From Pedobacter sp. (GTDB taxonomy: Bacteria > Desulfobacterota > Desulfuromonadia > Desulfuromonadales > Syntrophotaleaceae), in assembly GCA_050253415.1 (NCBI GenBank), contig JBFWJC010000002.1:160001-224000 (forward strand): a stretch of 64,000 nt of DNA. The letters run 5' to 3'. The notes beneath the pieces were generated by a model. That model did no database searches and was not told the origin of the DNA. It saw only the letters and a list, made by a program, of their open reading frames with translations. Each line of letters starts with the position of its first letter. Position 1 is the first letter of the stretch. Below are positions 8,749 to 50,035 of this stretch, in pieces. The translations under genes were made by a program, and so were the position numbers.

Positions 8749-10451
8749 GCGATACGCCCGACAAAGTTATTGACCTGGCCGCGCAAGTCGAGGCCAGGTT
8801 GCGACAAGAGGCCGCCGAGCTCGCCGCGGCAGAGGCGGAGCAAGTCGATCAAGACTCCACCGCCGGCGGTCCCGACGATCCGCGATTTGTCATGCAGTGC
8901 CTGGCCAACAACGAGCGTGGCGACGGGATTCTGTTCACCGCCCTGCAGCGTGGCCAGTTTGTCTACAACAAGACAAACGCTCTCTGGTATAGCTGGGCCG
9001 GTCATCACTGGGAAGTCGACAAGCTCAACCTGGCCACCACCGGCGTTGAATCCGTCGCGCTCAAGTATCTCGATCAGGCGGCCATGGTGCGGGCCGAACT
9101 CGATGAGTTGCGCAATGAGCTCGGCGCTCTGGAGACCCAAGCCGAAACCTGCCGCGCCGCCAAAGATCAGGCTGGTGCAGATGCCGCAACTGGTAAAGCC
9201 AAACGGCTCGCCAACCAGGTTGACGCGGCCGACCGAAAACTCAAAGGCCTTAACAAACGGGTCGAGCGCCTGCGCACCGTGCGCGGCGCATCCAACTGCC
9301 TCACCTGGGCCCACTGCGTCGAGCGGCCACTCGCCATCGTCGGCGATGAGATCGACAAAAAGCCCATGCTGCTCGCATGCAAAAACGGCGTCATCGACCT
9401 CGAGACAGGTCGCCTTCACCCAGGCAATCCATCCGACTACCTGGTGCGCGCCATCCCCGTCGAATATTACGGTATCGAACACGTCAACGAAGACTGGGAG
9501 AGGTTCCAGCGCGACATCCACCAGGACGACGAAGACTTTATCGGATTTGTGCGCCGTTACTTTGGCTACAGCATCACCGGCCTGACCAAAGAGCAGCACC
9601 TCGCCTGCTTTATCGGCGAAGGCGCCAACGGCAAAGGGACTATGTTCGAGACCCTCCACGAAGTCCTTGGAGAGCTCGCCTGGTCCATCGACCCAGAGAT
9701 GATCCTCGAGCAAAAAAACGCCAAAAGCTCCGCAGGCCCATCACCGGATATCGTCTCCCTATATGGCCGCCGCCTTGTCATCGCCTCCGAGACAGACCCA
9801 AACCGCCGCATCAGCGGAGCCAAAGTCAAACGCCTCACAGGATCCGACACACTTACCGGACGCGCCCCGCACGACAAGTACGAAATCAACTTTATCCCGA
9901 CCCATACCCTTGCCGCCATAACCAACCACGCGCCCAGGGGATTAGCCGCCGACTTTGCCCTTTTCCGGCGCCTGCTCTACCTCAACTACCCGCTGCGCTA
10001 CGTCGCAGACCCAGAACTCGAAGCCCGCAGCGACCCGCAAAACGCCGGCATCTATCGCCAACGCGACCCAGATCTGCCAGCCAAGCTGCTCGCCAATAAA
10101 CCCGGCATCCTCGCCTGGCTGGTTCGCGGATGCCTCGAATGGCAACGCGACGGACTCAAGCCACCGGAACAACTCCGCGCCGCCGCCGAAGAGATCCGCC
10201 GCAACGAAGACCACCTCGCCAGATTTATCGACGACAACTGCGAGCGCGTGGATGCAGACCGGCGCATCATGTTCAAAGCCCTGTACGCCAACTTTGACCA
10301 ATGGTTCGCCGACAACGTCGATGAAGACAAACGCTACCGCCCAGGCAAAAAAGCCATCGGCGATCAGCTGCGCCGCAAAGGCTACCGCGTCGAAAACAGC
10401 GGCGGGCAGGTCTACGTCTACGGCCTCACCATCGAAGGATGCTACGCATGA
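8745..10451 (+). CDS. P4-family primase/helicase (D5_N plus SF3 helicase)
   Basis: KNGVIDLETG, GEGANGKGT Walker A, GRRLVIASE, KRLTGSD. Confidence 0.88.
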   Translation: MSDTPDKVIDLAAQVEARLRQEAAELAAAEAEQVDQDSTAGGPDDPRFVMQCLANNERGDGILFTALQRGQFVYNKTNALWYSWAGHHWEVDKLNLATTGVESVALKYLDQAAMVRAELDELRNELGALETQAETCRAAKDQAGADAATGKAKRLANQVDAADRKLKGLNKRVERLRTVRGASNCLTWAHCVERPLAIVGDEIDKKPMLLACKNGVIDLETGRLHPGNPSDYLVRAIPVEYYGIEHVNEDWERFQRDIHQDDEDFIGFVRRYFGYSITGLTKEQHLACFIGEGANGKGTMFETLHEVLGELAWSIDPEMILEQKNAKSSAGPSPDIVSLYGRRLVIASETDPNRRISGAKVKRLTGSDTLTGRAPHDKYEINFIPTHTLAAITNHAPRGLAADFALFRRLLYLNYPLRYVADPELEARSDPQNAGIYRQRDPDLPAKLLANKPGILAWLVRGCLEWQRDGLKPPEQLRAAAEEIRRNEDHLARFIDDNCERVDADRRIMFKALYANFDQWFADNVDEDKRYRPGKKAIGDQLRRKGYRVENSGGQVYVYGLTIEGCYA

Positions 10452-10798
10452 TGACCGTTTTCGCGCTGGACAGGTCCGAACAGGGGGCAAGGGGCCATGA
10501 TCATATGATTATCGAAAAGACGTCAAATAATCATCATCATGGTTGTAACTATCCGGAAACACACAGGAATGATGCCGAATATGATCATATGATGATAATC
10601 CACAGAACTAGCTCTTCGCGTGCGCGTGCGCGCGCGTTAAGTATAAGCACTCCGTTATAGTCTGATTATTTTTTTATATTTCAAAGTTACTAGGAAAATA
10701 ATCATATCGTCATAATCGACCAAAAAAGAAAAGAAAAACAAACACTTAAAACCATGATGATGATTTTGAAGGAAAAAACACGATAATCATCATCATGG
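10450..10798. other. Putative phage replication origin (ATCAT/ATGAT iteron-like repeats, AT-rich tract)
   Basis: Repeated ATGATCATATGAT and ATAATCATCATCATGG, a GCGCGTGCGCGCGCG element and A-tracts between the helicase and primase genes. Confidence 0.55.
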
Positions 10799-12250
10799 AT
10801 GGATAAAAAGATGACCGTCCTCGATCTCGCCCAAAACCGCATATCCGGACTCAAAAAGAAAACCGCCAAAGAATGGGCCGGGCCTTGCCCTGTTTGCGGA
10901 GGTACCGACCGGTTCCTTGTTTGGACCCACCGCGACGCCTGGCACTGCCGTGGCTGCGACAAAAGCGGCGACGCTATCGAGTTTTTGCGCATGGTCGATG
11001 GACTGTCCTGCCCCGACGCCCACGAAGCCCTTGGCAAGCCATGCGACTCGTCCAGCTGCGGTGCCCGTGACAAATGTCGCCTCGGTGATGGCAAAACCGG
11101 TGCCACTCGCCGCGATCCGCTGCGTGTGACACCCTCTGTCAAACCCGAGCGCACCGACGACTGGACCCCGTCCACCGCCACCGACCCCGCCGCACAGTGG
11201 GCCGAAAAAGCCGAAGCCCTCACCACCTGGGCCCATGAGCAACTACTCGCCAACGCCGACCAGCTTGCTTTCCTCGCCGCGCGCGGTCTGCCCATCGAAG
11301 CCGTCAAACAATTCCGCCTCGGCTGGGTGCCCAAAGACCTCTACCGCGAACGTGGCGCCTGGGGCCTGTCCACCGACGAGATCAGCGAGCGCACCGGAAA
11401 GCCCAAAAAACTGTGGATACCCCAAGGCATCCTGATCCCCTTTACCGCCGACGCCCAGCTACACCGCATCCGTATCCGCCGCCACAAAGTCGAAGGAGAC
11501 CAGCCCCGTTATTACTGGCTGCCCGGCAGCGGCAACGACGTCGTGCTCATCAACCCCACGGCCCGCGCCTTTGTCGTCGTCGAATCCGACCTCGACGGGC
11601 TCGCCGTGGTGCATGCCGCCAGCGACCTGGTCGGCAGCGTACCCCTTGGCACCTGCAGCGCAAAACCCAAAGAGCACGCCAACGAGATCCTAAGCCGCGC
11701 CCTCAGCATCCTCGTCGCCCTCGATTTTGACAGCCCCGACGCCAAAGGGCAGCGCCCGGGCTCAAAAGCCTGGCCATGGTGGCGCGAGCACTTCCCACGC
11801 GCCGATCGCTGGCCCGTCCCAGCCGGTAAAGACCCCGGCGACTACGTCAAAGACCACGGCGGCGATCTGCGCGCCTGGGTCGAAGCCGGCCTGCGCAAAT
11901 TCTGCCCGGCCCTCACCATCCAACCGCCACCGACCGCCACAAACCATGTGGAAAAACCGGAAGAGGCCGCGGCCGATCACCTGACCGACGATGAGCCAGT
12001 GACCCTTCCGACCCATCACAAAGGCATCAGCGCCGGCGGTCATGACTACATCATCGCACACCAGGCCGACCATGCCCCCATGCTGATGGACGCCTACCCC
12101 GGCGTTCCGGTTTTTACCCTGGCCGAGATCGAGCAGCTTAAAGGGATGACAAAACAACAGGCGGAAATAGTTTTGTTGGCCAAGAAGGCATTAGGCGCCG
12201 ACACCGAAGTGCTCGAGACACGGCCATTAAAAAAGACGGAACCTCAATAA
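10799..12250 (+). CDS. Primase with zinc-binding and Toprim domains
   Basis: EWAGPCPVCGGTDRF..WHCRGC..GD; VVVESDLD, LDFD, GKDPGD. Confidence 0.82.
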   Translation: MDKKMTVLDLAQNRISGLKKKTAKEWAGPCPVCGGTDRFLVWTHRDAWHCRGCDKSGDAIEFLRMVDGLSCPDAHEALGKPCDSSSCGARDKCRLGDGKTGATRRDPLRVTPSVKPERTDDWTPSTATDPAAQWAEKAEALTTWAHEQLLANADQLAFLAARGLPIEAVKQFRLGWVPKDLYRERGAWGLSTDEISERTGKPKKLWIPQGILIPFTADAQLHRIRIRRHKVEGDQPRYYWLPGSGNDVVLINPTARAFVVVESDLDGLAVVHAASDLVGSVPLGTCSAKPKEHANEILSRALSILVALDFDSPDAKGQRPGSKAWPWWREHFPRADRWPVPAGKDPGDYVKDHGGDLRAWVEAGLRKFCPALTIQPPPTATNHVEKPEEAAADHLTDDEPVTLPTHHKGISAGGHDYIIAHQADHAPMLMDAYPGVPVFTLAEIEQLKGMTKQQAEIVLLAKKALGADTEVLETRPLKKTEPQ

Positions 12251-12700: not shown

Positions 12701-13414
12701 ATGTTGGAAAAATTTCTTAACCGACTCATAGAGCTTAAACGACCCGAAACCGTCGAGATCGATGGACGTCAATACACCACCGCCAAACTGTACCCCGTCG
12801 AAGATCCGACCCCGGCCGCGATCACGGTGCATACCTTGGCCAGTCTTGCCACCTACATCAAAGATCATCCCGCCGATCTTCCTCCGGTCGATCAGCTGAT
12901 CCTGTCCGTCGACTCGCCGGTGCGCGTTGATCTGCTCAGCCATGGTGCCGGATACTTCAACCAGCGCCGCCACTGCGCCGCCGCAACCGTGTTGCCCGAT
13001 GAATTCCCCTTCGGTTGCTACATGCCACAGGAAGAATTCGTCATCGCCATGATGACCCGCTTCGTCCGCGACAAAATGGTCGACGATATCATGGCCGTGG
13101 CCGGAAATCTGAGCGCCGACACCAATCTGGCCATCGAAGACGACGGCGTTTCCCAACGTCTCAACGTCAAGGCCGGTATCTCACGCAAAAGCGAAGTCGT
13201 CGTCGAAAACCCCGTCACTCTGCGCCCCTACCGCACATTCATCGAAGTCGAACAGCCCGAATGCCAGCTGGTGCTGCGCTTCAAAAAAGACCGCGAAGGT
13301 GTCCCCCAGTGCGCCCTGTTTGAAGCCGATGGAGGCCTGTGGAAGAACAAAGCCGCCGACAATATCGCAACCTGGCTGCGGCAAAACGTACCCGGAGTAA
13401 GCGTCCTGGCCTGA
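12701..13414 (+). CDS. Conserved phage hypothetical protein
   Basis: RBS GGAGG; DDGVSQ...NPVTLRPYRTFIEVEQP...ALFEADGGLW. Confidence 0.7.
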   Translation: MLEKFLNRLIELKRPETVEIDGRQYTTAKLYPVEDPTPAAITVHTLASLATYIKDHPADLPPVDQLILSVDSPVRVDLLSHGAGYFNQRRHCAAATVLPDEFPFGCYMPQEEFVIAMMTRFVRDKMVDDIMAVAGNLSADTNLAIEDDGVSQRLNVKAGISRKSEVVVENPVTLRPYRTFIEVEQPECQLVLRFKKDREGVPQCALFEADGGLWKNKAADNIATWLRQNVPGVSVLA

Positions 13415-13939: not shown

Positions 13940-14054
13940 ACCGCCAGCCACTAAGCCCGAAAGTTTGCCCCATCTGCGGCGGATATCTCGCCACCATCGG
14001 CAACAAGACCCGCGAGTGCGAGCAATGCGGATACCGCCGCAAGGAGAAAACCAA

Positions 14055-14639
14055 ATGACCAACCCAGCCGCCACCCCGCAACCCATGTCCCGCCAAGGTC
14101 GTCAAAACGTCCTGCCCGAAGTCATCAAAGACCTCGAAGCCCGCACCGCCGTCGGCATTACCAAATACGGCACCCAACTGCAAACCCACAACGGCCGTGA
14201 CGCCCTGATCGATGCCTACCAGGAATCCCTCGACCAGGTGCAATATCTCAAACAGGTACTCATGGAGCGCGACAACCCCGCACCCGAATACAACTGGCCC
14301 GAGACCATCTTTGTCCGGCAAAACACCACCGCCCAGCAACTCGACCATATCCTCAGCGAGGTCGACGAAATCAACCAGATCGGGCCCCATATCGATCCAG
14401 ACGGTAGCCCCAACGACCCGATCCTGCGACACCTGCACATGAAGGTCGCCGACCTGCACCACAGCATCGAGACCTACTGGCGCAAACTAGAGATTGAGCG
14501 CGGGCCCGAATACGTCTCCGCCGTGTTCCAAGCCGTCGAGGATGAAAGCAGGGTGCGCGGATATTACGACCTGGATCCCATCGAAGAACCGCTGCCATGC
14601 CTTGCCGGACCGTTTGGGTTGATGCCCCAGGGAGTTTGA
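14055..14639 (+). CDS. Hypothetical phage protein
   Basis: RBS AAGGAG; R..VGITKYGTQL..NGRD.L.DAYQE..D motif seen in phage proteins. Confidence 0.65.
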   Translation: MTNPAATPQPMSRQGRQNVLPEVIKDLEARTAVGITKYGTQLQTHNGRDALIDAYQESLDQVQYLKQVLMERDNPAPEYNWPETIFVRQNTTAQQLDHILSEVDEINQIGPHIDPDGSPNDPILRHLHMKVADLHHSIETYWRKLEIERGPEYVSAVFQAVEDESRVRGYYDLDPIEEPLPCLAGPFGLMPQGV

Positions 14640-14644
14640 CAGGT

Positions 14645-14833
14645 ATGGCCACAGATCCGGCCCGCGCCAAAAAGCGCACCCTGGCCCAGTGGCGCCACGA
14701 GCAACGCCAATCCTGCCGAGCCAGACCATGCTCCGCCGTCGCCGAAATGCTCGCAACCGGCAAGACCGCCGGCCAGATCCGCTGCGTGATCTGCGTGTGG
14801 GAAGGCCAGATCAAAAAGATAGCGCCGCAGTAA
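14645..14833 (+). CDS. Small hypothetical protein
   Basis: RBS-like AGGT; followed by a GC hairpin. Confidence 0.4.
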   Translation: MATDPARAKKRTLAQWRHEQRQSCRARPCSAVAEMLATGKTAGQIRCVICVWEGQIKKIAPQ

Positions 14834-14863
14834 AAGCGATTTGACTGTGAGATAGCTGCGGCA

Positions 14864-14888
14864 TCCCGCCGCCGTGGTGGCGGCGGGA
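14864..14888 (+). terminator. GC-rich hairpin just upstream of the cassette array
   Basis: TCCCGCCGCC-GTGGT-GGCGGCGGGA then AGATTTT. Confidence 0.4.
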
Positions 14889-14893
14889 AGATT

Positions 14894-14995
14894 TTGAAAC
14901 GCCAAGGTAAGACGCGCCGCACTTCCGACGGCGCACCACTAAATTTAACGCGAACCTGCCAGCTATTGCGCGTCGTCTTGACCGGCTGGTTGTGC
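14894..14995 (-). repeat. attC-1 (102 bp)
   Basis: Minus strand GCACAAC CAGCC GGT-C-AAGAC...GTCTT ACC TTGGC GTTTCAA. Confidence 0.82.
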
Positions 14996-15013
14996 CCGCC
15001 TACGGAGGAGTGA

Positions 15014-15253
15014 ATGAAGATCTGGTTTGTAGGAAAGCCGATTGTTGTTGATGGAGAAGAACTTGGCTGGATGCCGGAAGGGGCTTTTGAGACAGAAGAG
15101 GAGGCGGCGAAGGTTGCCACAGATGCCGAATTTATCGTACTGGCCGAGGTTGGAGGAAGATTTCCAGAAAAAGCCACAGATGCCGAAAAGCTGTATTACC
15201 CGAAACTGGAGCGGTGGGAGGATAGCGCCCTTTACAAGATGCGGAATCAGTAA
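15014..15253 (+). CDS. Cassette 1 hypothetical protein
   Basis: RBS GGAGGAG; fills the space between attC-1 and attC-2. Confidence 0.7.
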   Translation: MKIWFVGKPIVVDGEELGWMPEGAFETEEEAAKVATDAEFIVLAEVGGRFPEKATDAEKLYYPKLERWEDSALYKMRNQ

Positions 15254-15255
15254 GG

Positions 15256-15330
15256 GAACAACGCCTGCCGATCAGCGGTGAACGAAGGAGCGCAGCGGAT
15301 GAGTTATCCGCTGCATGGGCCTTGTTAAAC
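15256..15330 (-). repeat. attC-2 (75 bp)
   Basis: Minus strand GTTTAAC AAGGC CCAT-G-CAGCGGA...CCGCTG ATCGG CAGGC GTTGTTC. Confidence 0.85.
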
Positions 15331-15350
15331 AGCCATAAGGAAATGGTCAA

Positions 15351-15737
15351 ATGACACGATTTAAATTTAGAGCATGGGACTCCGTGAACAAGGAAATGCT
15401 TGACGCAAATACTGGATGTTTTTTCTACGAAGAAGACAACGGTTTCCATTGTGGATACCTGGCTGGTGTCAACGCTCCTGCTGATGTTGCGGGGGATTGG
15501 GTTGAATGCCCTGTGATGCAATGGACCGGGATCCGTGACAAAAACGGCATCGAGATTTACGAGGGTGACATTGTAAACCTTGACACTCTTTGCAAATACG
15601 AAGGCGGTGGGACTATTTGGAGAATTAAGCCGCACAAGGTTGTTTTTGAACGCCAGAGATGGCTCCCGGATAGACTGTCGGAGTCTGAAATTATTGGCAA
15701 CATCTACGAACACCCTGAGCTGGTCGGGGCAGTTTAA
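15351..15737 (+). CDS. Cassette 2: YopX-family protein
   Basis: FKFRAWD...MQWTGIRDKNGIEIYEGDIV...EIIGNIYEHPEL. Confidence 0.88.
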   Translation: MTRFKFRAWDSVNKEMLDANTGCFFYEEDNGFHCGYLAGVNAPADVAGDWVECPVMQWTGIRDKNGIEIYEGDIVNLDTLCKYEGGGTIWRIKPHKVVFERQRWLPDRLSESEIIGNIYEHPELVGAV

Positions 15738-15865
15738 CGCTTGAGATCACGGGATTGCGGAGGAAACTATGACAATTGATATGGATATGCCATTTGGCGA
15801 GTTTGCACGGAAACACCTTGATACCGGCGCGGGTAGCAATTCCGCTGTGGATCGACTGGTTAAAT
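15732..15865 (-). repeat. attC-3 (134 bp; contains the RBS and start codon of the cassette 3 gene)
   Basis: Plus strand GTTTAAC GCTTGA GATCAC GGGATTGC...GCAATTCC GCT GTG-G-ATC GACTG GTTAAAT. Confidence 0.82.
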
Positions 15866-16164
15866 CGCCGCCGGTAGTCTGCCTGTGCGGATCTACTCGT
15901 TTTTTCGATGCGTTCAGAGACGCGAATCGCGCCGAAACGATGGAGGGAAAGATCGTGCTTGCTCCCGGAGTGTTTGGCCATTGCGGCGATCCATTGACTG
16001 ACGACGATAAGTTGCGGCTAGATATTTTGCACTATTGGAAAATTGACCTGGCCGACGAGGTGCTTGTGCTCAATGTTGGCGGGTACATTGGCAGCAGCAC
16101 CCAAAACGAAATCGAGTATGCCAAGCGAACCGGGAAACCTGTGCGCTTTCTTGAGGCGATTTAA
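15769..16164 (+). CDS. Cassette 3: nucleoside 2-deoxyribosyltransferase-like / DUF4406-like protein
   Basis: VVCLCGSTRF...KIDLADEVLVLNVGGYIGSSTQNEIEYAKRTGKPV. Confidence 0.7.
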   Translation: MTIDMDMPFGEFARKHLDTGAGSNSAVDRLVKSPPVVCLCGSTRFFDAFRDANRAETMEGKIVLAPGVFGHCGDPLTDDDKLRLDILHYWKIDLADEVLVLNVGGYIGSSTQNEIEYAKRTGKPVRFLEAI

Positions 16165-16218
16165 CGACTTAGTATGAGCGCGCCTGCGTAGCAGGTCCGC
16201 TCGATGCGCTGGTTCTAA
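16159..16218 (-). repeat. attC-4 (60 bp)
   Basis: Plus strand ATTTAAC GACTTA GTATGAGC..CCTGC GTA GCAGG..GCTC-G-ATGC GCTG GTTCTAA. Confidence 0.8.
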
Positions 16219-16252
16219 AGGGTTTTCGCGCTCGGCGAAGCCGATAGGGGGT

Positions 16253-17110
16253 TTGATTGTGGGTTTATTTGAGACAACAGAAGAAGAACTGTACCAGATC
16301 GCCATAAGTCGGCCGCTTGAAGAGAAGATTGATCAGGCAATCTCTCTTATCCAGGCGACTGAAGGCCAAGCGTTGAAATTATCTGATGATGGCTTTTACG
16401 TCTGCTTTTCTGGGGGGAAAGACAGCATTGTCATGGCTCGGTTGTTTGAGATGGCCGGTGTTAAATTTGGCCTACATTACAACAATGTGACAATCGATCC
16501 TCCCGAACTGGTTCGGTTTATCAAGGAAGAATATCCCCATGCGGAATGGCATTCTGTCGGCAAGCACCTGATCAACTACATGGCCGAAGACAAGGTTTGC
16601 GGTCCCCCAACGCGGCTAATTCGCTGGTGTTGCGAGATTTACAAAGAGCAAGGTGGGGTTGATAAATTCCGGGCAATAGGGGTGAGGGCCGAAGAGTCCG
16701 CCAGGCGGAAGGGGTTGTGGAAGCAGATTACCACTGACAGGAAAACGAAGATGCCGATTTTATGCCCCATTTTGTATTGGACACATGCCGACATCTGGGC
16801 ATTCATCAAGCAGCATGACATGCCGTATTGCTGCTTGTATGACGAGGGTTTTGACCGCCTGGGCTGTGTCGGGTGCCCAATGGGAGGACCAAAAGGGCAA
16901 GCCCGCGATTTCGCCCGCTGGCCGAAATATGAAGCGATGTGGAAGCGTGGATTCAGGAAGTATTTTGACAAGTACAAGGGCGTTCCGAAGCGCAACGGGG
17001 AGCCTCGGGCAATCGAAAAATTCCCAACCGTAGACGACCTGTGGAATTGGTGGATAAGCGGCAAAGCCTATGAAGGCGACAATCCGGATTGCCAACTGTG
17101 GCTGTGGTAG
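16253..17110 (+). CDS. Cassette 4: PAPS-reductase-family (PP-loop) protein
   Basis: FSGGKDS, RWCCEIYKE, GVRAEESARR, PILYWT, RLGCVGCP. Confidence 0.88.
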   Translation: MIVGLFETTEEELYQIAISRPLEEKIDQAISLIQATEGQALKLSDDGFYVCFSGGKDSIVMARLFEMAGVKFGLHYNNVTIDPPELVRFIKEEYPHAEWHSVGKHLINYMAEDKVCGPPTRLIRWCCEIYKEQGGVDKFRAIGVRAEESARRKGLWKQITTDRKTKMPILCPILYWTHADIWAFIKQHDMPYCCLYDEGFDRLGCVGCPMGGPKGQARDFARWPKYEAMWKRGFRKYFDKYKGVPKRNGEPRAIEKFPTVDDLWNWWISGKAYEGDNPDCQLWLW

Positions 17111-17128
17111 GTTTTGCGCGAAAAGACT

Positions 17129-17230
17129 TTAGAACGATCATGGTCAGCGACGGTGTGAGAACGGACGCGCCGCACCGACCTAAACGAGAATCGCCGCAGG
17201 TCTTCCGTTCGCTGGACCTGCTGGTTAGAT
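17129..17230 (-). repeat. attC-5 (102 bp)
   Basis: Plus strand TTAGAAC GATCAT GGT CAGCGA CGG...CCG T TCGCTG-G-ACC TGCTG GTTAGAT. Confidence 0.85.
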
Positions 17231-17250
17231 TTCTTTCTATAGAGGAACTT

Positions 17251-17451
17251 ATGAAACCTAAATGCCCACATTGCGATCACCAGTTTGATGACGACCAAGT
17301 TTGGCACGGAAGCAACAACTGCGAATTCCCAACCGAGCGCGACGGTGATACGGGGGAATTCGACTGCCCGATCTGCGGGAAGCCGCTGTATGTTCGTATT
17401 GAATTCACCCCCGCATGGTACTTCACCGACGATAACGGCATTGAAATCTAA
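17251..17451 (+). CDS. Cassette 5: zinc-ribbon protein
   Basis: RBS GAGGA; CPHC...CPIC. Confidence 0.7.
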   Translation: MKPKCPHCDHQFDDDQVWHGSNNCEFPTERDGDTGEFDCPICGKPLYVRIEFTPAWYFTDDNGIEI

Positions 17452-17531
17452 TAACAAAGATCAGCGGCGAAGGAGGCCGTAGCCTATGAAACTGAAGCGT
17501 TTATTTCGTCCGCTGTATTGGCTGGTTATGC
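17446..17531 (-). repeat. attC-6 (86 bp; R' box begins ATT instead of GTT; contains the RBS and start of the cassette 6 gene)
   Basis: Plus strand ATCTAAT AACAAA GAT CAGCGG CGAA...TTCG T CCGCTG-T-ATT GGCTG GTTATGC. Confidence 0.75.
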
Positions 17532-17695
17532 GCTGCACTGGAACTATTTATTTGGAACCTGGCCTTAGAGTAACCACTTCTGGCTGGGTGATTATTTCTG
17601 ACGGGAAATCGAAAGATGCTTTGCCTATCAGCCTCGTCTCGCAAGAGATTGTGGATAAGGTGGAAGCCAGTTTGGCAAGTTGGGGTTACACATAA
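17486..17695 (+). CDS. Cassette 6 hypothetical protein
   Basis: RBS AGGAGG inside attC-6; TAA stop coincides with the next R box. Confidence 0.6.
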   Translation: MKLKRLFRPLYWLVMRCTGTIYLEPGLRVTTSGWVIISDGKSKDALPISLVSQEIVDKVEASLASWGYT

Positions 17696-17744
17696 CGACT
17701 AGCTGACCGAGAGCGCAGCGATTCGGTCGAGCGGCTTGTTGTAA
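17690..17744 (-). repeat. attC-7 (55 bp)
   Basis: Plus strand ACATAAC GACTA GCT GACCGA GAGCGCAGCGAT TCGGTC-G-AGC GGCTT GTTGTAA. Confidence 0.85.
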
Positions 17745-17756
17745 TGCGAGGGACCT

Positions 17757-18020
17757 ATGAAAAAGAACCGATTGGCCGCAAAGGAGTGGCGCGAAGAAGA
17801 TCAACGGAAAAAGAAGCAAGCTGAAGACATTGAGTACGCCACAAGCAAAACATACGACGCAGAAAAGCGCATCCGTGGCTTGAGTGCAACAATCGAGTAT
17901 GCCGGGCATCCAGAAATCGCAGAAAAGGTAGAGTCTGCGAGGTTGCTATTAGCAGAATCTTACGAAAATCTGCAAGCAATACAACGACTAGCTGACCGAG
18001 AGCGCAGCGATTCGGTCTAG
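17757..18020 (+). CDS. Cassette 7 hypothetical coiled-coil protein (reads into attC-8)
   Basis: RBS GAGGGA; stop TAG lies inside attC-8. Confidence 0.65.
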   Translation: MKKNRLAAKEWREEDQRKKKQAEDIEYATSKTYDAEKRIRGLSATIEYAGHPEIAEKVESARLLLAESYENLQAIQRLADRERSDSV

Positions 18021-18033
18021 CGGCTTGTTAGAC
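17979..18033 (-). repeat. attC-8 (55 bp; 46/47 identical to the attC-7 core)
   Basis: Same as attC-7 except the bulged base (G versus T on the plus strand). Confidence 0.85.
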
Positions 18034-18048
18034 ATTAAATAAAGGAGC

Positions 18049-18243
18049 ATGAAAATGTTGATTACGTTTAAAGCAAGATGCCCTGAGTGCGGAGTGGATG
18101 GAAAACACACAGTGGAAATAGGACAAGACCTGCACCCGAAGAAGGTACTTCTTTGCGACACGGAAGTTGGAGGATGCGACTGTTATTTCGCAGCATTTAT
18201 AAACATAAGGGCCGAAGCTGAAACGGCAAAGATAGATGTCTAA
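18049..18243 (+). CDS. Cassette 8: small zinc-finger protein
   Basis: RBS AAGGAG; CPEC...CDTEVGGCDC. Confidence 0.65.
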   Translation: MKMLITFKARCPECGVDGKHTVEIGQDLHPKKVLLCDTEVGGCDCYFAAFINIRAEAETAKIDV

Positions 18244-18351
18244 CAGAGGTAACAATGGAAAATTTTCCACTTATCACCACGATTAAAGCCAAAAAGTGGA
18301 AAACAGCCGTCAACAAATGACAACAGCCAAATGACAAAGGACACCCCCTGA

Positions 18352-19101
18352 ATGTTCCAGCGCGCCCAACAACTCATCGACGTTGCCAGCCAGCACCAAA
18401 AAGCCGAACTGGTCACACTGCACAACGCCGTGCTCGAACGCATGGAAGCCTACAAGAAGGCCAGCACCGCCGCCAACAAGCGCGACTGGGCCGCCGCCAA
18501 AAAAGGCCTGCAGGAGTGCATCGACCAACTCTTGCCGGTGTACTTCCCCGAGCTGTCCGCCGCCGACCCGGAGGTGTTCGACACCCAAAAAGCCGCCCTC
18601 GCCTGGCTGCACAACCACTTCGGCAAACCGTACCCGTCCGCCGGCAAGTTCAGCCAGGATATCCGTGACGGGCTGTGCCTGCAGCAGCAGAACAAAACCA
18701 TCCTGCGCAAGGATCTCAAAAAATACGCCGAGGTCATCGGCCATGACAAGCAGGCCGCCGCCGCCTCGGCCAGCCAAGCCGAAAAACGCGAAAAGCTCGA
18801 AATCGAAAAGCTGGAGCTGGATGTCGAAAAACGCCGGATGGAAAACCGCAAGGAGGACAAAAACTGGATCGCCCGCGACACCGTCTTCGAACGCGAAGGC
18901 GCCCTTGTCGGTCAGATCATGGGCGAAGCCCGCCATCACCTCGGCCGCGCCGTACCCGCCGTGATCCATGCCGCCAAAGGCGACCCCGAGCGCACCCCGG
19001 AGATCAAAAAAATTATCGAAGAAGCCCTGTTCGACGCCTTCCGCTCCCTGTATGAATCCGGCGAAGTCGACATGACCTTTTTGCAAGAAGAAGAGGACTG
19101 A
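18352..19101 (+). CDS. Putative terminase small subunit
   Basis: Coupled to the GpA-type large subunit; coiled-coil EKLEIEKLELDVEKRR region. Confidence 0.55.
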   Translation: MFQRAQQLIDVASQHQKAELVTLHNAVLERMEAYKKASTAANKRDWAAAKKGLQECIDQLLPVYFPELSAADPEVFDTQKAALAWLHNHFGKPYPSAGKFSQDIRDGLCLQQQNKTILRKDLKKYAEVIGHDKQAAAASASQAEKREKLEIEKLELDVEKRRMENRKEDKNWIARDTVFEREGALVGQIMGEARHHLGRAVPAVIHAAKGDPERTPEIKKIIEEALFDAFRSLYESGEVDMTFLQEEED

Positions 19102-21077
19102 TGCAAACCGCCCTGGCCGCCGACATCTTTGCCCAGCCCCTGCCCGAGTTTTTCCCCGAGCAGCTGCGCCACGCCTGCAGCGGTAAACGCATCCGCTACA
19201 CGCTGCCGCGCTCCGTGCGCGAACGCATGCAAATACCCGAAGACATCACCGTCAGCCAATGGGCCGAAAAATACCGCCGCGTCACCGCCATCGACGCCGA
19301 GCCAGGCCGCTGGCGCATCGACCGCGTCCCCCACACCAAAAAACTCATGGACATGATCAGCCTGCCGTGGGTCAAGGAATTCTGGCTGTGCATGGTCGAG
19401 CGCGCCGCCAAAACCCAGATAGTGCTCAACGCCGCCTGCCGTCAGATCGACCGCGGCATAGACTCCGGCAACGTATTTTGGCTCATGCCAAGCGAAGCCG
19501 ACGCCAAAAAAGCCCTCAGCGAACGCATCATACCCGTACTCAAAGAGAGCCCCCGCATGGCTCGGCTGCTGTCGCGCTACGCCGACGACACCACCAGCAC
19601 CAAGATCCGCTTTAAACACGGACCGCGCCTGTTTCCCGCCTGGTCCAACAGCCCCGGCTCCATCGCCTCGTTTTACGGCAAGCTCAACATCGGCGATGAG
19701 ATCGACAAATACGGCGACCGCTCCGGCGGCGAAACCGACCCCATTACCCTGCTCAAAAAACGCGGCCGCGACAGCGACGAATCCAAATTCCTGTTTGCCA
19801 GCACCCCCGCCGGTAAATTTATATACAAAGGCACCATGGCCTGCCAGCAAGTCTGGACCTACAAAAACCGCTGCCCCCATTGCGGTGAATACATCCTGAT
19901 GGACGCCGATCATTTCATGCTACCCGAAGGCGCCACCCAGGAGACCATCAAACACGGCGAGCACCCCGTCACCTACGCCTGCAACGACTGCGGCGTAGAA
20001 TGGGACGAAACCGACCGCAAAACCGCCTACCAAAACGGCGACTGGTTCGCCATCAAAGGCGCCGATGTCGAGCGGCCCACCACCATCGGAGCCTGGTTGC
20101 CGGCCTTCCCGCTGCCCAACATCCCCATGGCCGAGATCGGCGCCGCCATCGCCCGCGCCAACACCGGAGATCTCGCCGGTAAGATGGACCTCGCCCACGG
20201 CTATAAAGCCGTCGACTACGAAGCCGAAAACAAAGACCGGCAAGAAGACGCCATCCTGCTGCTGCGCGACGACCGCCCGGCAGGCATGATCCCCACCGAA
20301 GCCAACGGCCTCGAAATATCCATCGACACCCAGGATAACGGCTTCTGGTATCGCATCCGCGCCTGGCGTTACGGCCTCGATCTCAAAAGCTGGCTTGTCA
20401 AAGCCGGATATGTGCCCAGTGCCAACGCCGCCGACTTTGCCGCCCTCGATGATCTCATCGCGGCCGAATACCCCGACACCAACGGCGAGCCCCACCGCAT
20501 TATGGCCGGCATCATCGACAGCGCCGGGCATCGCACCAGCGAAGTCTACGCCTGGTGCCGCCGCACCGGAATCATACCAGCCAAAGGTGCCCAAGGCCGC
20601 AAGACCCAGCCCGTCACCGTCAGCCGCATCGACCGTTTCCCCGGTGACAACAAACCGATCCCCGGCGGCCTCAACCTCTACCATATCGACACGCATTTTC
20701 ACAAAGACCAACTCGCCAACAAACTGCAGATCGACCCCTCCGATCCCGGCGCCCTGGTGCTGCACAGCGGCTATAGCCTTGACCAGCTCACAGCCCTGCA
20801 CCGCGATCCAAACGGTAAACAAGCCCACAACCTGGAGGAATACGCCCGCCAGATGTGCGTCGAATACCGCGACGAGCGCGGCCTGTGGCAATGCCCCGAC
20901 GGCAAAGCCAATCACCTGTGGGATTGTGAAAACAACGGCCTCGCCCTGGTCATGTACCTGGGTTGGCAGCACAAAGGCAGCGTAAAAAAGAAGCCCGCCA
21001 CCAACGGACTCAAACCCAAAGACACCGCACCAGCCGCCACCAGCCGCGACCTTCCGGCATGGTATCGCAACCGCTAA
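19101..21077 (+). CDS. Terminase large subunit, lambda GpA family
   Basis: ITVSQWAEKYR, GDEIDKY, ASTP, CPHCGE, IDTQDN, IDSAGHRT, NHLWDCE. Confidence 0.9.
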   Translation: MQTALAADIFAQPLPEFFPEQLRHACSGKRIRYTLPRSVRERMQIPEDITVSQWAEKYRRVTAIDAEPGRWRIDRVPHTKKLMDMISLPWVKEFWLCMVERAAKTQIVLNAACRQIDRGIDSGNVFWLMPSEADAKKALSERIIPVLKESPRMARLLSRYADDTTSTKIRFKHGPRLFPAWSNSPGSIASFYGKLNIGDEIDKYGDRSGGETDPITLLKKRGRDSDESKFLFASTPAGKFIYKGTMACQQVWTYKNRCPHCGEYILMDADHFMLPEGATQETIKHGEHPVTYACNDCGVEWDETDRKTAYQNGDWFAIKGADVERPTTIGAWLPAFPLPNIPMAEIGAAIARANTGDLAGKMDLAHGYKAVDYEAENKDRQEDAILLLRDDRPAGMIPTEANGLEISIDTQDNGFWYRIRAWRYGLDLKSWLVKAGYVPSANAADFAALDDLIAAEYPDTNGEPHRIMAGIIDSAGHRTSEVYAWCRRTGIIPAKGAQGRKTQPVTVSRIDRFPGDNKPIPGGLNLYHIDTHFHKDQLANKLQIDPSDPGALVLHSGYSLDQLTALHRDPNGKQAHNLEEYARQMCVEYRDERGLWQCPDGKANHLWDCENNGLALVMYLGWQHKGSVKKKPATNGLKPKDTAPAATSRDLPAWYRNR

Positions 21078-21087
21078 GGAGACCACC

Positions 21088-21306
21088 ATGACACCACCGC
21101 AAATATACCGCCGCAAAGACATGCTCACCGTCGCCCAATTCGCCAAAGTCATCGGCATGAGCCGTAGTTTTGCCTATCAACTGGTCGAGCGCGGACCGCA
21201 AGAAGGCGGCGTTCTGGCGTTTCGTTATGGCAAGACAAAAGGGCTTAGGGTGCCGGCGGAAGAGGTGACGCGATATCAGCAGGAGAGAAAGGTTGTTGAG
21301 GTATAA
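21088..21306 (+). CDS. Excisionase-like / HTH_17 DNA-binding protein
   Basis: MLTVAQFAKVIGMSRSFAYQLVERG...LRVP; RBS AAGGAG. Confidence 0.7.
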   Translation: MTPPQIYRRKDMLTVAQFAKVIGMSRSFAYQLVERGPQEGGVLAFRYGKTKGLRVPAEEVTRYQQERKVVEV

Positions 21307-21360
21307 CGGATTTGAGGTGTGCGGCGAGCGTAGCGAGTCCACACCAGCGAAGGGTTATGA
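21301..21360 (-). repeat. attC-9 (60 bp) of the solitary cassette
   Basis: Minus strand TCATAAC CCTTC GCTGGTGTGGA CTCGCTACGCTCG CCGCACACC TCAAATCC GTTATAC; cassette ends GTTATGATGCC/GGCATCATAAC are a perfect 11-bp inverted repeat. Confidence 0.75.
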
Positions 21361-22187
21361 TGCCCATGCAGAAACAGCGAATCATACGGGTTTTTCCGAG
21401 ACGGACAGCGGCCACGCCAGATGATGATCTGGTGAGGATCGCCACAACGCCCGGCCTCTTTGACGAAGCCGATGAAGTGCATGTGTCGGTGACGTTTACT
21501 TGGGATTTACCCCTTGTCGAAAAACTGGCGAAAGCCTGGGAGCCGGTGGCTCCTGTGACGATCGGAGGCCCGGCGACGGGAGAAGCTGGGGGGGATTTTA
21601 CCCCTGGCTTGTACGTCAAAAAAGGCTACGTACTCACCTCTCGCGGCTGCCCGAACAACTGCTGGTTTTGTTCCGTGCCAAAACGTGAAGGCCCGTTGCG
21701 GGAATTGCCGATCACCGAAGGCTGGAACGTCCTCGATGACAACTTGTTGGCATGCTCTGACGATCATGTCCGGAGAGTGTTCGAGATGCTGTATGGCCAG
21801 AAGAAAAACGGACGGATTCAATTTACTGGCGGACTGGAAGCTGCCCGCCTCAAACCCTGGCACGTTGAAGCCCTGCGGGGATTGAGGCCGAAACAGATGT
21901 TCTTTGCGTACGACACGCCCGACGATCTGGAACCGCTGCAGGACGCTGGTAGGATGCTGTTGGATGCTGGCTTTACGATCACAAGTCACGCCCTTCGGGC
22001 CTATGTGTTGTGCGGCTGGCCGAAGGATAGTTTTGAGGCGGCAGGCCGCAGGATGCAACAAACGATAGACGCCGGTTTCATGCCGATGGCGATGCTTTAC
22101 CGTGGCGTAGCCGGCAAACGTGATACGGAGTGGATGCGCTGGCAACGGGAATGGGCGAGACCAGCCATAATTGCCAAGGCATCATAA
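21357..22187 (+). CDS. Cassette 9: radical SAM protein
   Basis: TSRGCPNNCWFCSVP CxxxCxxC, LDDNLLA; start at 21357, 21360 or 21366. Confidence 0.85.
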   Translation: MMPMQKQRIIRVFPRRTAATPDDDLVRIATTPGLFDEADEVHVSVTFTWDLPLVEKLAKAWEPVAPVTIGGPATGEAGGDFTPGLYVKKGYVLTSRGCPNNCWFCSVPKREGPLRELPITEGWNVLDDNLLACSDDHVRRVFEMLYGQKKNGRIQFTGGLEAARLKPWHVEALRGLRPKQMFFAYDTPDDLEPLQDAGRMLLDAGFTITSHALRAYVLCGWPKDSFEAAGRRMQQTIDAGFMPMAMLYRGVAGKRDTEWMRWQREWARPAIIAKAS

Positions 22188-22262
22188 CATCCTTTAACCA
22201 GCCCACAATGACAGTTACCCATATAATTATTTTAGGCAAAACCGCAAAAACCTAAAAAAGTT

Positions 22263-22329
22263 GTCCACCACGTCCACCACGTCCACCACGTACATGACAA
22301 CCCCCACCCATGCGCCGTAATCTCGGCGC
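22263..22329 (+). promoter_or_regulatory. Putative late promoter: 3x GTCCACCAC repeats then ATGACA-18-TAATCT, leaderless
   Basis: Tandem 9-mers at 22263-22289 lie just upstream of the -35; the -10 ends 6 nt before the ATG and there is no RBS. Confidence 0.5.
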
Positions 22330-22575
22330 ATGGCTATTACCCCACTATACACATCCTCCGAGCTCGATGCCCTGATCGCCGCCTATAAGCAGGCCGAGAT
22401 GTCGCTCGCGTCCGGCGTCGCGGAATACACCATCGACGTAGGTGGTGGTCGCCGTACCGTGCGCCGCCGCGATCTGGCCGAGGTGCGCCAGGCCCTGCAA
22501 TACTACCAGGGGCAGCGCGTGCAACTCGCTACCGGCTCCGGCCCCCAAACCCTGGTGGGGAGACCGGTACGATGA
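22330..22575 (+). CDS. Head-tail joining protein (gpW-like)
   Basis: Small ORF before portal; EYTIDVGGGRRTVRRRDLAEV. Confidence 0.7.
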   Translation: MAITPLYTSSELDALIAAYKQAEMSLASGVAEYTIDVGGGRRTVRRRDLAEVRQALQYYQGQRVQLATGSGPQTLVGRPVR

Positions 22576-24107
22576 GTGGTTGCCGCGTAGGGCGCAGCTA
22601 TCCCGCCGGCCGGTACCACGGCGGTCTTATCCCAAGCATCCAGGGCGCTTCCATTCGTCGCAGCTCCGGCGGCTACAGCGGAACTCTCTCCAACTGGTCG
22701 CCATCGCGCATGACCTGGCCCGAAGAAGGCCGCAACCGCGAAACCACCGTCGACCGCGCCAACGACCTCGCCGCCAACCATCCCCACGCCGCAAGCCTTG
22801 TCGACTCCATCACCGTCAACGCCGTCGGTCCCGGGCTGTGGCCGCAAAGCAAGCCACATTACGAGCGCCTTGGCTTGTCCGAGAGCTGGGCCACAGAGTT
22901 TGCCGGCGCCGCCGAGTGGGAATTGGAACAGTGGAACCGTGAAGCCGACGCCCGCGAAGTCACCGACTTTTACGGCAAACAGTTTCAAAACCTCTGGTCG
23001 ATGCTCGTCAACGGCGAATTTATCAACCTGCCTCTGATGCTCGATGATCCAGGACGCCGTTACCGACTCGCCCTGCAGGATATCGACCCCGTGCGCCTTC
23101 GTACCCCCATGGCCCTGTTCGGCGCCGCCGATATCCGCGACGGTATCCGACTCGGCGACCGTGGCCAGGCCAAAGGCTACTTCCTCGCAGATCCCGACGA
23201 CGGCCGCATTGTAAGCAGCCTCGACATGCGCCACTATCGCGAGCTACCCGCACGTATCGGCCACCGCCCGGTGGTCATGCACCGCTTCCACGCCAAAACC
23301 CCCGAGCAGGTGCGCGGCGTCAGCGTGCTGGCACCGGCCATGAAGTTCTTCCGCGATGTCTCCGACTACCTCGATTACGAGCTGGTCGGCGCCATCGTCG
23401 CCAGCAGCTTCCCGGTCTTCATCGAAAAAAACACCACTTACGATGCCACCCAATTGCCCGGTGTCGAGTCCGTACAAAACGCCACCGGCGATACCACCCA
23501 TTACCGCAACTACAGCCCCGGCCAGGTGCTGTACGGCAACGGCGCCGAAAAGCCCCATATCCTCAAAAGCGACCGCCCCGGCAACTCCTTCCCGGCGTTT
23601 ATCGAGACCATCCTGCGCGCCGTCGGTGCTGCCGCCGGCATGCCCTACGAGATCATCAGTAAAGACTTTTCCAAAACCAACTACTCCAGCGCCCGCGCCG
23701 CCCTGCAAGAAGCCTGGCGCGTGTTTGAGCTCTATCAGGATTGGCTGGTCGGCGGATTTTGTCAACCGGTGTGGGAGATGTTACTGGAAGAAGCCTTCCT
23801 GCGCGGTCGCCTGCCGATCCCCAAGGGCGCACCCGACTTTTACGCCGCCCGCGCCGAATATTGCGCCGCAACCTGGGTCGGCCCCGAGCGTACCAACGTC
23901 GATCCCGTCAAAGAGATGGTCGCCGACATCATGGGCCTTAACGCCAACGTGACCACCCAAGCCGATATCGCCGCCAAAAAAGGCAAAGACTGGGAGCAGC
24001 AGTTCAGACAGCGCTCCCGCGAGCGTCAGCTGGCAAGAGACCTAGACCTTAATCCGGATCCGCCGAGCACCAAAAAAGCCAAAGATCCGGCCACCGTATT
24101 GGAGTAG
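22572..24107 (+). CDS. Portal protein, lambda family
   Basis: RANDLAANHP, QVRGVS.LAP, DFSKTNYSSARAA, VDPVKE. Confidence 0.92.
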   Translation: MSGCRVGRSYPAGRYHGGLIPSIQGASIRRSSGGYSGTLSNWSPSRMTWPEEGRNRETTVDRANDLAANHPHAASLVDSITVNAVGPGLWPQSKPHYERLGLSESWATEFAGAAEWELEQWNREADAREVTDFYGKQFQNLWSMLVNGEFINLPLMLDDPGRRYRLALQDIDPVRLRTPMALFGAADIRDGIRLGDRGQAKGYFLADPDDGRIVSSLDMRHYRELPARIGHRPVVMHRFHAKTPEQVRGVSVLAPAMKFFRDVSDYLDYELVGAIVASSFPVFIEKNTTYDATQLPGVESVQNATGDTTHYRNYSPGQVLYGNGAEKPHILKSDRPGNSFPAFIETILRAVGAAAGMPYEIISKDFSKTNYSSARAALQEAWRVFELYQDWLVGGFCQPVWEMLLEEAFLRGRLPIPKGAPDFYAARAEYCAATWVGPERTNVDPVKEMVADIMGLNANVTTQADIAAKKGKDWEQQFRQRSRERQLARDLDLNPDPPSTKKAKDPATVLE

Positions 24108-28847: not shown

Positions 28848-29363
28848 ATGAAATCGAGACTTCCTTTTTTGGCCCTGATTCTTCTGTTCGCTTTGACCAT
28901 GCTGGTGGTCGGTTGCTGCACGTCTCCGACCGCCGATCCCGTCGGTGCTGCGTTCGACCGTCATGAAACAGGCCTGCATCTCGCCGTCAATGTCGGTGTC
29001 GGCCAGCTACTCACCGCGCACCCCGAGTGGGCCCTCCCCGCGGCGCAGATCGCCGAGGCCGTCGCCGTCGAGCTGGAGACCGAAGGGCTGGTCAGCCTCG
29101 AGCGCCTGCAGCAAGAGGTCACCGACCGTATCGACTGGGAGGGGCTGCCGCCCGCCGAGCAGAGCCTGATACTCAGCGTGGTCGATACCGCCGCCGAGGC
29201 CATATCCAGGCGACTGGATGAATCCGGCCTGACCGATCCCAACGAGCGCAAGATCCGCGTCGCCAAAGTGCTGCGCTGGATCTCCGAAACAGCCCGCGCC
29301 CGATCAGGCACCGCCGCCGTCAAAAATGCCGCCCGTGGGAAGAGCTATCAGGTGCTCGCGTGA
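28848..29363 (+). CDS. Lipoprotein (possible lysis accessory)
   Basis: Signal peptide with lipobox VVGC. Confidence 0.55.
   Translation: MKSRLPFLALILLFALTMLVVGCCTSPTADPVGAAFDRHETGLHLAVNVGVGQLLTAHPEWALPAAQIAEAVAVELETEGLVSLERLQQEVTDRIDWEGLPPAEQSLILSVVDTAAEAISRRLDESGLTDPNERKIRVAKVLRWISETARARSGTAAVKNAARGKSYQVLA

Positions 29364-48205: not shown

Positions 48206-50035
<1,830 letters not shown>

Follow-up and report, generated by a model that had tools for sequence, protein, structure and literature searches.

The question raised by this locus is whether a row of short genes in a temperate phage constitutes an integron array, and if so, how the genes are oriented relative to their recombination sites. 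The phage is integrated within a 64-kb window, this being the whole stretch of DNA that was analysed, of a 4.1-Mb bacterial genome; its genes in question lie between positions 14894 and 18310 of the window and are separated by hairpins resembling the attC sites of integron cassettes. An original prediction, based on the DNA sequence alone, held that these hairpins, along with another at a second, single-gene locus downstream, have their canonical order on the minus strand, leaving all nine cassette genes of the two loci antisense to their attC sites and co-oriented with phage transcription. We consider it highly probable that the first locus is an integrase-less, integron-like platform, in which antisense attC sites end at an attI-like site of the host's type and would be served in trans by the integron integrase (IntI) of the host.

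The region is an island of deviating composition (14900-18300), having a GC content of around 0.50 and a positive GC skew, in contrast to around 0.61 and a negative skew in the flanking phage sequence. It consists of eight short plus strand open reading frames (ORFs) with hairpins between them, which open with ..AAC and close with GTT... A second such island spans positions 21200-22200.

The attC sites and their strand

Two covariance models were used to locate attC sites, replacing a home-made hairpin heuristic that returned 582 'good' candidates scattered across the whole genome and was therefore too unspecific. The training set of the first model, R1, consisted of 16 host attC sites, taken on the strand reading away from intI and attI, such that its orientation is fixed by these adjacent features. 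R1 identified seven significant sites in the window, all within 14894-18033 and all on the minus strand (19.8-43.2 bits, E values of 2.9e-8 to 0.027). No significant plus strand match was found in the 64 kb, the sole plus strand match, at position 60377, having an E value of 0.32. The second model, R2, was rebuilt from 39 R1 matches, including the window sites, and run with filters off; it added an eighth site (attC 2 in Table 1), which was absent from its training set, and its matches in locus 1, eight in total, fall without exception on the minus strand. The strand call from an attC model had been set beforehand as the test of the original prediction, and eight minus strand sites with no significant plus strand match are what it anticipated. 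A search of Rfam at E values of up to 10 gave two chance matches and no attC family. With eight attC sites, and intI absent from the window, locus 1 is a CALIN (a cluster of attC sites lacking an integrase gene); the genome-wide search with TIGR02249 had no match inside C2:160001-224000.

The folding of the sites also bears on the strand. According to the accessible text of Nivina et al. (2016), the bottom strand of an attC site is marked by extrahelical bases on the arm opposite the AAC, with a 6-bp stem separating the first from the last. The first site of the array pairs GGT-AAGAC with GTCTT-G-ACC, as had been described, the extra base being in the 3' arm on the plus strand, and the model alignments likewise place the extra bases of the window sites in this arm, opposite the 5' AAC. 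Both bulges, with a 6-bp stem between them, are present in attC 5 and attC 6, whilst the first is seen in attC 1, 4, 7 and 8 and none in attC 2; the phage bulges sit in the bulge columns of the model. Because the significant model matches are confined to the minus strand, and the extra bases lie opposite the AAC on the plus strand, we take the plus strand to be the attC bottom strand. The canonical order originally predicted for the minus strand is therefore upheld at eight of nine sites, the ninth, in locus 2, scoring just 11 bits.

On the plus strand, all eight sites of locus 1 and that of locus 2 start with ..AAC and end with GTT... In each of the eight locus 1 sites, the model alignments show the L stems and, unpaired, a spacer of about 5-6 nt; several R boxes, such as the first, depart from RYYY. 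The array begins on the left with a complete attC and finishes on the right with a bare R box, GTCTAAC, which, like the TCATAAC closing locus 2, is located where it had been reported (Table 1).

It is scarcely credible that the sites are instead canonical, with the plus strand as the top strand and an attC of its own behind every gene. AAC...GTT can be read on both strands, and the left boundary of a PAPS reductase segment shared with a related phage, L181 (see below), is near a right box, as such an arrangement would have it. However, the left box that comes next marks the right boundary of the same segment, the right end of the array is occupied by the bare R box and the attI-like site, attC 6 scores 6.5 bits on the plus strand against 43.2 bits on the minus, and neither the want of significant plus strand matches nor the extra bases opposite the AAC on that strand conforms to it.

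As a separate observation, attC 8 is almost a copy of attC 7, the two differing at the bulged base, and contigs from public runs break at both.

The cassette genes

In seven of the eight intervals between locus 1 sites the longest ORF is on the plus strand; the interval of gene 8 contains a longer, 80-aa minus strand ORF without a Shine-Dalgarno (SD) motif. Across both loci an SD-like motif precedes eight of the nine plus strand ORFs and none of the nine alternative minus strand ORFs, the one plus strand ORF without it being the PAPS reductase-like gene, where there is a G-run and a likely alternative start. Family matches support the plus strand for the YopX, PAPS reductase and radical SAM genes, whilst the protein of gene 1 has no match in Pfam or PHROG. 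As all the lytic genes of the prophage are also on the plus strand, the co-orientation of the cassette genes with phage transcription is confirmed. Since the attC top strand is the minus strand and the genes are on the plus, the genes are antisense to their attC sites and sense to the early-to-late transcription of the phage; this is secure for the eight genes of locus 1, and less so for the ninth, given its weak attC.

A consensus scan found two promoter-like sites where 4.2 were expected, neither of them reading leftward into the array from the attI-like site, and terminator-like sites were likewise not enriched (13 observed, 12.7 expected). The cassette genes would be read through from phage promoters, for which the SD motifs and the unremarkable number of promoter-like sites are indirect support.

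Some genes and sites overlap. The loop of attC 3 contains the start of gene 3, and that of attC 6 the SD motif and ATG of gene 6; the ORFs starting at 15769 and 17486 thus begin, along with their SD motifs, inside the upstream attC loop. The ORF ending at 18020 runs 41 nt into the next attC, making its C terminus dependent on the neighbouring unit.

An attI-like site at the right end of the array

Unseen by the original prediction, an attI-like site adjoins the bare R box at the right end of the array. It has a 12-nt palindrome, 13 nt beyond the last R box, as well as a second half-site at 21 nt and an adjacent GTT. Just five copies of the palindrome exist in the 4.1-Mb genome: four are in the three attI sites of the host, two of these being in the attI beside intI and one each at the intI-less C1:335857 and C3:106504, and the fifth is in the phage. 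A minus strand alignment of 50 nt of the phage site with the distal host attI, covering half-site, 21 nt and palindrome, scores 38-47, compared to shuffle maxima of 21-25, and the array sits on the side expected for this orientation. The simple-site pattern of the host attI was found in seven of 101 related genomes (five of the 16 in the same family), the controls giving no matches.

The integron of the host

The host has a sole full IntI in a genome-wide search (C1:1750302-1751246, minus strand; TIGR02249, 447.6 bits against a cut-off of 265), followed by the attI region and then by a plus strand cassette array that continues to the contig end. R1 detected 51 attC sites in nine arrays genome-wide. 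Host attC sites, taken on the strand reading away from intI, have one-base bulges in the 5' arm. In the host arrays of this attC family the longest ORF is sense to attC in 34 of 38 intervals, in keeping with the premise of the original prediction that a cassette gene is usually sense to its attC; it is on this account that the arrangement in the phage is the unusual one.

The window resembles both the host integron and the intI-less arrays in having the same attC family, as recognised by R1, and the same attI palindrome and second half-site. Unlike the window, the host has genes that are mostly sense to attC, an intI at one locus, and an attI with an extra repeat unit. Inverted cassettes are known from sedentary chromosomal integrons, where they are a minority and mostly encode toxin-antitoxin systems with their own promoters. 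The window genes are similarly antisense to attC; unlike these cassettes, the whole array is inverted, with tightly packed ORFs and no enrichment of promoters.

We propose that the attI-like site and the eight attC sites form a unit whose canonical top strand is the minus strand, with one short gene on the plus strand coming after each attC, in most cases preceded by its own putative ribosome-binding site. The phage sites belong to the attC family of the host's chromosomal integron, and the attI-like site appears to mimic the host attI; the host IntI would then insert and excise attC-plus-gene units at the phage attI in trans, acting on a folded plus strand that would represent the recombinogenic bottom strand.

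Several features of the host arrays were noted in passing. There are three near-identical attI regions and one full intI; the attI-plus-cassette arrays at C1:335700-346000 and C3:106300-110300 have ordinary chromosomal genes for neighbours and no full intI of their own, as though an integrase acted on them in trans. A 111-aa frame at C2:470321-470557 matches the C-terminal part of an integron integrase alone (95.7 bits), and may be an intI remnant; it adjoins an attC array at C2:471387-473668. A host-type array at C2:109869-118946, which is 41-50 kb upstream of the window, has canonical genes and is on the same strand as the phage array, this being the 'wrong' orientation relative to replication by GC skew.

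The same module in other phages

When viral contigs were scanned for a 15-mer motif, at least 127 stretches matched, mostly through chance, and two of the 74 loci screened contained R1 attC sites. A longer attI pattern retrieved 19 loci (five viral, four from genomes and ten from metagenomes), of which seven were unrelated chance matches (L152, L156, L157, L160, L161, L166 and L168) and a further three (L158, L164 and L167) are not counted among the nine that share the module. These nine have the same order of attC sites with plus strand genes, a bare ..AAC, 8-11 nt and the palindrome, and all 16 R1 matches with E values below 0.05 in the module loci are antisense to the plus orientation of the motif. 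In phage loci the genes flanking the module are phage genes on the plus strand. Downstream in contig L151 these encode, again all on the plus strand, DnaB, a replication initiator and a Holliday junction resolvase; ten of the 11 nt that separate GTT from the palindrome on the minus strand of this contig are the same as in the host attI. In an AT-rich family (L150/L154, L153/L165 and L159/L163) the array is just upstream of genes for a small terminase subunit (TerS)-like protein, the large terminase subunit (TerL) and the portal protein. Two chromosomal loci with the motif, L155 (beside TetR) and L162 (beside a chemotaxis receptor, with a BglII-like cassette), have cassette ORFs on the attC strand, and so are canonical.

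Members of the AT-rich family have identical attI sites and flanks and differ in their attI-proximal units. L153 corresponds to L159 with the addition of one 417-nt attC-gene-AAC unit, with the terminal ..AAC immediately on one side of it and the 11 nt that precede the palindrome immediately on the other, whilst L150 has a different unit at this junction, encoding a methyltransferase (phrog_757, E value of 2e-44). The sequences diverge directly after the left-box AAC. To judge from these alignments, the differences follow the pattern that would be expected for insertion at an attI, in units composed of attC body, gene and ..AAC. The proposal that each attC precedes its gene finds support in these L153 and L159 variants, and meets an exception in L181.

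The hairpins might alternatively be boundary or linker elements of the phage, or terminators, that serve homologous or illegitimate exchange of modules and resemble attC sites incidentally, with no role for IntI. This we regard as very improbable. The window and L181 share the core of a gene between two R boxes and no more, and the shuffled arms of their hairpins would fit short-homology recombination; illegitimate recombination at GTTRRRY-like repeats is, moreover, raised by Qi et al. (2023; PMC9892861) in the accessible text. Yet a model trained on host sites alone finds the phage sites with E values as low as 2.9e-8 and bulges at the model positions, the array is adjoined by the attI motif in each of three phage lineages, the insertion variants have exact junctions at the AAC, and terminator-like sites occur at about the expected number. 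In addition, attC sites in the same arrangement, in phage PH101, are recombined by IntI1 in the same source.

Viral relatives of the cassette genes

Ninety-eight viral loci were surveyed, these being the 18 relatives of the PAPS reductase-like gene and the best 80 of the 127 relatives of the radical SAM gene, each with the query gene oriented to the plus strand. At an E value of 0.5 or below, R2 had 40 matches in 17 of these loci, every one on the minus strand and so antisense to the query gene; matches within one array are not independent of each other. The plus strand ORF is the longest in 20 of the 23 intervals between these attC sites, and in the other three a minus strand ORF is slightly longer; PHROG matches were found for seven of 24 plus strand ORFs and none of 18 on the minus strand. 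The matches were to methyltransferases, to one Lar-like and one Gam-like protein, and to families of unknown function. The palindrome, allowing up to one mismatch, was absent from the 16 attC-bearing PAPS reductase and radical SAM loci checked.

L194 (4820-4870) and L175 (4875-4925) have in common a GC-rich stretch directly after the ..AAC of the last cassette, which might represent a docking site of a different type or a leader conserved in these phages.

Closer relatives of the phage itself were sought in several collections. Megablast of positions 14000-23000 against a phage collection gave zero matches, a TerL search of genome contigs gave 27 pattern matches and no relative, and the contigs from public runs X1-X3 contained the identical phage, without any variant of the array. 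L181, a related phage whose TerS and TerL are about 81% identical to those of the window, has a different array at the same position. The stretch common to the two arrays is limited to 16195-17136, extending approximately from the right box of attC 4, across the PAPS reductase-like gene, to the left box of attC 5.

That the array was captured passively, as a piece of a chromosomal integron with attI and cassettes together, and has no ongoing function or turnover, seems improbable. Its composition differs from that of the phage, its attC family and attI motif are those of the host, and the related phage L012 is without attC sites, all as capture would predict. Set against this are the phage-typical cargo (YopX, PAPS reductase and radical SAM, the last two with 18 and 127 viral relatives respectively), the failure to find a homologue of any cassette protein in the host arrays, the antisense orientation of every gene compared to the prevailing sense orientation in the host, the different array in L181, and the unit-by-unit turnover at attI in the L150/L153/L159 lineage.

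Published phages and known systems

Qi et al. (2023; PMC9892861) describe integrons and CALINs that phages have in their genomes, and the array in the window is a variant of these already known phage-borne attC clusters. Like the phage CALINs in the accessible text of that study, it is an attC cluster without intI in a phage, associated with DNA methyltransferase cargo; the published attC sites are recognised by an integron integrase in the authors' assays, IntI1 being the enzyme that recombined those of PH101. Unlike them, as far as this text describes them, the window array has an attI-like site of the host's attI family at its end and all of its genes antisense. The same text refers to the cassettes of TJE1 and PH101 as 'oriented in the same direction ... 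typical', does not treat the strand of gene versus attC, using 'orientation' twice and of oriT in both cases, and raises off-target recombination at GTTRRRY-like repeats alongside the illegitimate kind.

The bottom-strand primers in the supplement of that study were located in the GenBank records and compared with the annotation. PH101 proved to be inverted, the recombinogenic bottom strands of both its attC sites being on the coding strand of the neighbouring genes. Hence the inverted arrangement occurs with experimentally recombined attC sites, yet is not universal in phages. In P12002L, the published attC2 is present twice, at 29175-29239 and 37201-37265, the second copy being beside a Mom-like gene.

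Lambdoid phages have moron or nin-like clusters of accessory genes between their replication and packaging modules. The window array, being just upstream of the small terminase gene, is similar in position and in the kind of content, small accessory genes such as YopX and methyltransferases; unlike such clusters, it has each gene bounded by attC, and ends at an attI-like site. Outside subscription journals and preprint supplements, the literature searched yielded no paper on phage cassettes with antisense genes or on an attI of this type carried by a phage.

Points against the proposed platform

A number of observations weigh against the account given above. Part of the R2 training set consists of the window's own sites. 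At the attI-like site, a shorter plus strand alignment to the proximal repeat of the host also exceeds the shuffles (36-40, with maxima of up to 26), as the motif is palindromic; the spacing from palindrome to GTT is 10 nt in the window and 11 nt in the host, and the L-box sequence of the host is missing. The attC of locus 2 is non-significant. No homologues of the nine cassette proteins were found in the host arrays, and exchange with this particular host is consequently not supported.

Others come from related and published phages. An R2 attC match is absent from 81 of the 98 survey loci. The closest relative of the phage, L012, with a TerL identity of 82%, has no attC match, and nor do ten further TerL loci. 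L181 is without the palindrome; the attC bodies on both sides of the PAPS reductase segment that it shares with the window differ, what is common being GTT-gene-AAC, and its upstream attC bears the arms of attC 3 of the window. There must therefore also be crossovers at the right box or exchange through short homology in a conserved arm, and the units are not always attC-first. TJE1 is canonical, with both of its bottom strands opposite the genes, and P12002L is mixed, having a canonical attC2 and an inverted attC1 that was inactive in the assay of Qi et al. (2023), according to its accessible text. The contrast between phage-borne and chromosomal arrays stands for the viral survey (40 of 40 matches antisense) and the host (34 of 38 intervals sense), and does not extend to all published phages.

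Possible significance of the inverted orientation

More tentatively, phages of this kind may keep an integrase-less attI of their own, copied from the host lineage, and use the host IntI to trade in a phage-specific pool of inverted cassettes. The genes would then be expressed on phage transcripts and be silent, antisense to the cassette promoter Pc, in a bacterial integron. As part of the same tentative proposal, the cargo would comprise methyltransferases, restriction-alleviation proteins, PAPS reductase-like and radical SAM enzymes and YopX, and the coding strand would be at once the non-template strand, the lagging-strand template and the recombinogenic strand.

Replication may offer a different reason for the orientation, and one datum supports the original suggestion that the orientation may fix which replication strand exposes the hairpin. 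By GC skew the plus strand of contig C2 is the leading strand, which puts the phage attC bottom strands on the lagging-strand template in this one lysogen. Six of eight host arrays have them on the leading-strand template, with one opposite (C2:109869-118946) and one ambiguous. In the accessible text of Richard et al. (2024), orientation on the lagging template is linked to high excision. The inverted arrangement might accordingly have been selected mainly for its recombination dynamics, a bottom strand that is both lagging-strand template and non-template strand being able to fold and the array thereby staying mobile; we think this rather doubtful as the principal cause. In its favour, besides the difference from most host arrays and the effect on excision, secondary-site insertion could place canonical cassettes sense to phage genes, and the inverted type therefore needs more than co-orientation with transcription to account for it. 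On the other hand, the skew is deduced from contigs of a single lysogen, and one host array shares the orientation of the phage whilst another is ambiguous. Selection of this kind is compatible with the integrase-less platform and does not exclude it.

An integron is usually regarded as a bacterial device whose strand selectivity serves to place promoterless genes sense to Pc, and the phage array departs from this. Many uncultivated viral contigs show the same antisense pattern, as does at least one phage with experimentally recombined attC sites. If the proposed platform is real, integron integrases would shape the accessory and anti-defence gene content of phages, a second pool of cassettes, adapted to phages, would exist and escape notice as expressed genes in bacterial integrons, and the orientation of gene versus attC would be a readable mark of the replicon to which a cassette is adapted. 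The array is also a natural system for studying how replication and transcription expose attC bottom strands.

A second locus with a probable single unit

The second locus, 21301-22188, contains the radical SAM gene, downstream of the terminase genes. The unit at 21310-22187 has ..AAC and GTT-type junctions at both ends, and the R boxes of the hairpin overlap the stop codon of a helix-turn-helix (HTH) gene and the ATG of the radical SAM gene. The segment common to the window and L188, L194 and L207 stops exactly at 22188. The hairpin has an E value of 3.8 over the window and 0.45 over 7.5 kb, and folds with a spacer of 2-3 nt, shorter than that of an attC site. Some relatives of the radical SAM gene adjoin strong antisense attC sites, as in L194 (54.7 bits). 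This locus is probably one attC-plus-gene unit at a GTT secondary site on the HTH stop codon, the attC of which has decayed. It is like the attG or secondary-site cassette insertions in the accessible text of Loot et al. (preprint 10.1101/2022.09.11.507474) in being a single unit between ..AAC ends at a GTT-containing site with no attI motif, and unlike them in its degenerate attC.

The HTH_17 gene (21088-21306) is kept at full length in L012, and is followed there by unrelated minus strand cargo. As L012 has unrelated cargo at the same spot, an ordinary moron hotspot is possible too, and the position is best read as being such a hotspot as well.

Table 1. Features of the window, with positions counted from its first nucleotide.
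Feature	Position	Strand	Remarks
Window	G000:C2:160001-224000		64 kb of 4.1-Mb genome
Prophage	about 900-41800		
Serine integrase of prophage	902-2380	minus	
attC 1, outermost, complete	14894-14995	minus	R1 33.4 bits, E 9.5e-6; R2 54.5 bits; extra G in 3' arm on plus strand
Cassette gene 1, 79 aa	15014-15253	plus	only ORF in interval; GGAGG SD
attC 2	15256-15330	minus	R2 25.3 bits, E 6.5e-4; fold without clear extra base
Cassette gene 2, YopX family	15351-15737	plus	PF09643, E 4.9e-19; phrog_98, E 1.9e-28
attC 3, long	15732-15865	minus	R1 22.0 bits, E 0.0076; R2 31.9 bits
Cassette gene 3, 131 aa, no family	15769-16164	plus	longest ORF in interval; GGAGG SD
attC 4	16159-16218	minus	R1 19.8 bits, E 0.027; R2 32.1 bits
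Cassette gene 4, PAPS reductase-like	16253-17110	plus	PF01507, E 2.6e-22; phrog_424, E 2.9e-38; 18 viral relatives
attC 5, best-scoring	17129-17230	minus	R1 43.2 bits, E 2.9e-8; both bulge positions of the model have extra bases
Cassette gene 5, 66 aa, zinc-ribbon-like	17251-17451	plus	weak zinc-ribbon Pfam matches, below cut-off; SD present
attC 6	17449-17531	minus	R1 34.3 bits; R2 43.2 bits (minus), 6.5 bits (plus)
Cassette gene 6, 69 aa	17486-17695	plus	AGGAG SD; longest ORF in interval
attC 7	17690-17744	minus	R1 24.2 bits, E 0.0021
Cassette gene 7, 87 aa	17757-18020	plus	stop inside attC 8
attC 8	17979-18033	minus	R1 23.9 bits, E 0.0024
Cassette gene 8, 62 aa	18055-18243	plus	AGGAG SD; further in-frame ATG at 18049
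Bare R box GTCTAAC	18238-18244	minus	overlaps gene 8 stop codon; no hairpin beside it
attI-like site	18245-18310	minus	12-nt palindrome and second half-site 21 nt away
TerS-like gene	18352-19101	plus	
TerL, gpA-type	19101-21077	plus	
Degenerate attC-like hairpin	21301-21360	minus	R2 11 bits, non-significant
Radical SAM gene	21357-22187	plus	phrog_9298, E 3.5e-17; 127 viral relatives
Bare R box TCATAAC	22182-22188	minus	closes locus 2

Other features of the prophage

The prophage integrase gene is followed by those for a repressor, a CII-like regulator and then the primase and helicase, and TerL by portal, protease, head and tail genes. Between the two primase/helicase genes is a patch of low GC content (10400-11000; 0.42-0.46), inside which lies a 73-aa ORF (10439-10660). 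A 9-nt unit is repeated three times at 22262-22290, directly upstream of the head-tail adaptor gene, and this triple repeat is also kept in the related phage contig L012, at 13166-13194. Beyond the tail genes are two proteins of unknown function: one of 1154 aa, at 41952-45419 on the minus strand (phrog_11823, E value of 6e-180), and one of 609 aa, at 48206-50035 (phrog_13807, E value of 6e-249).

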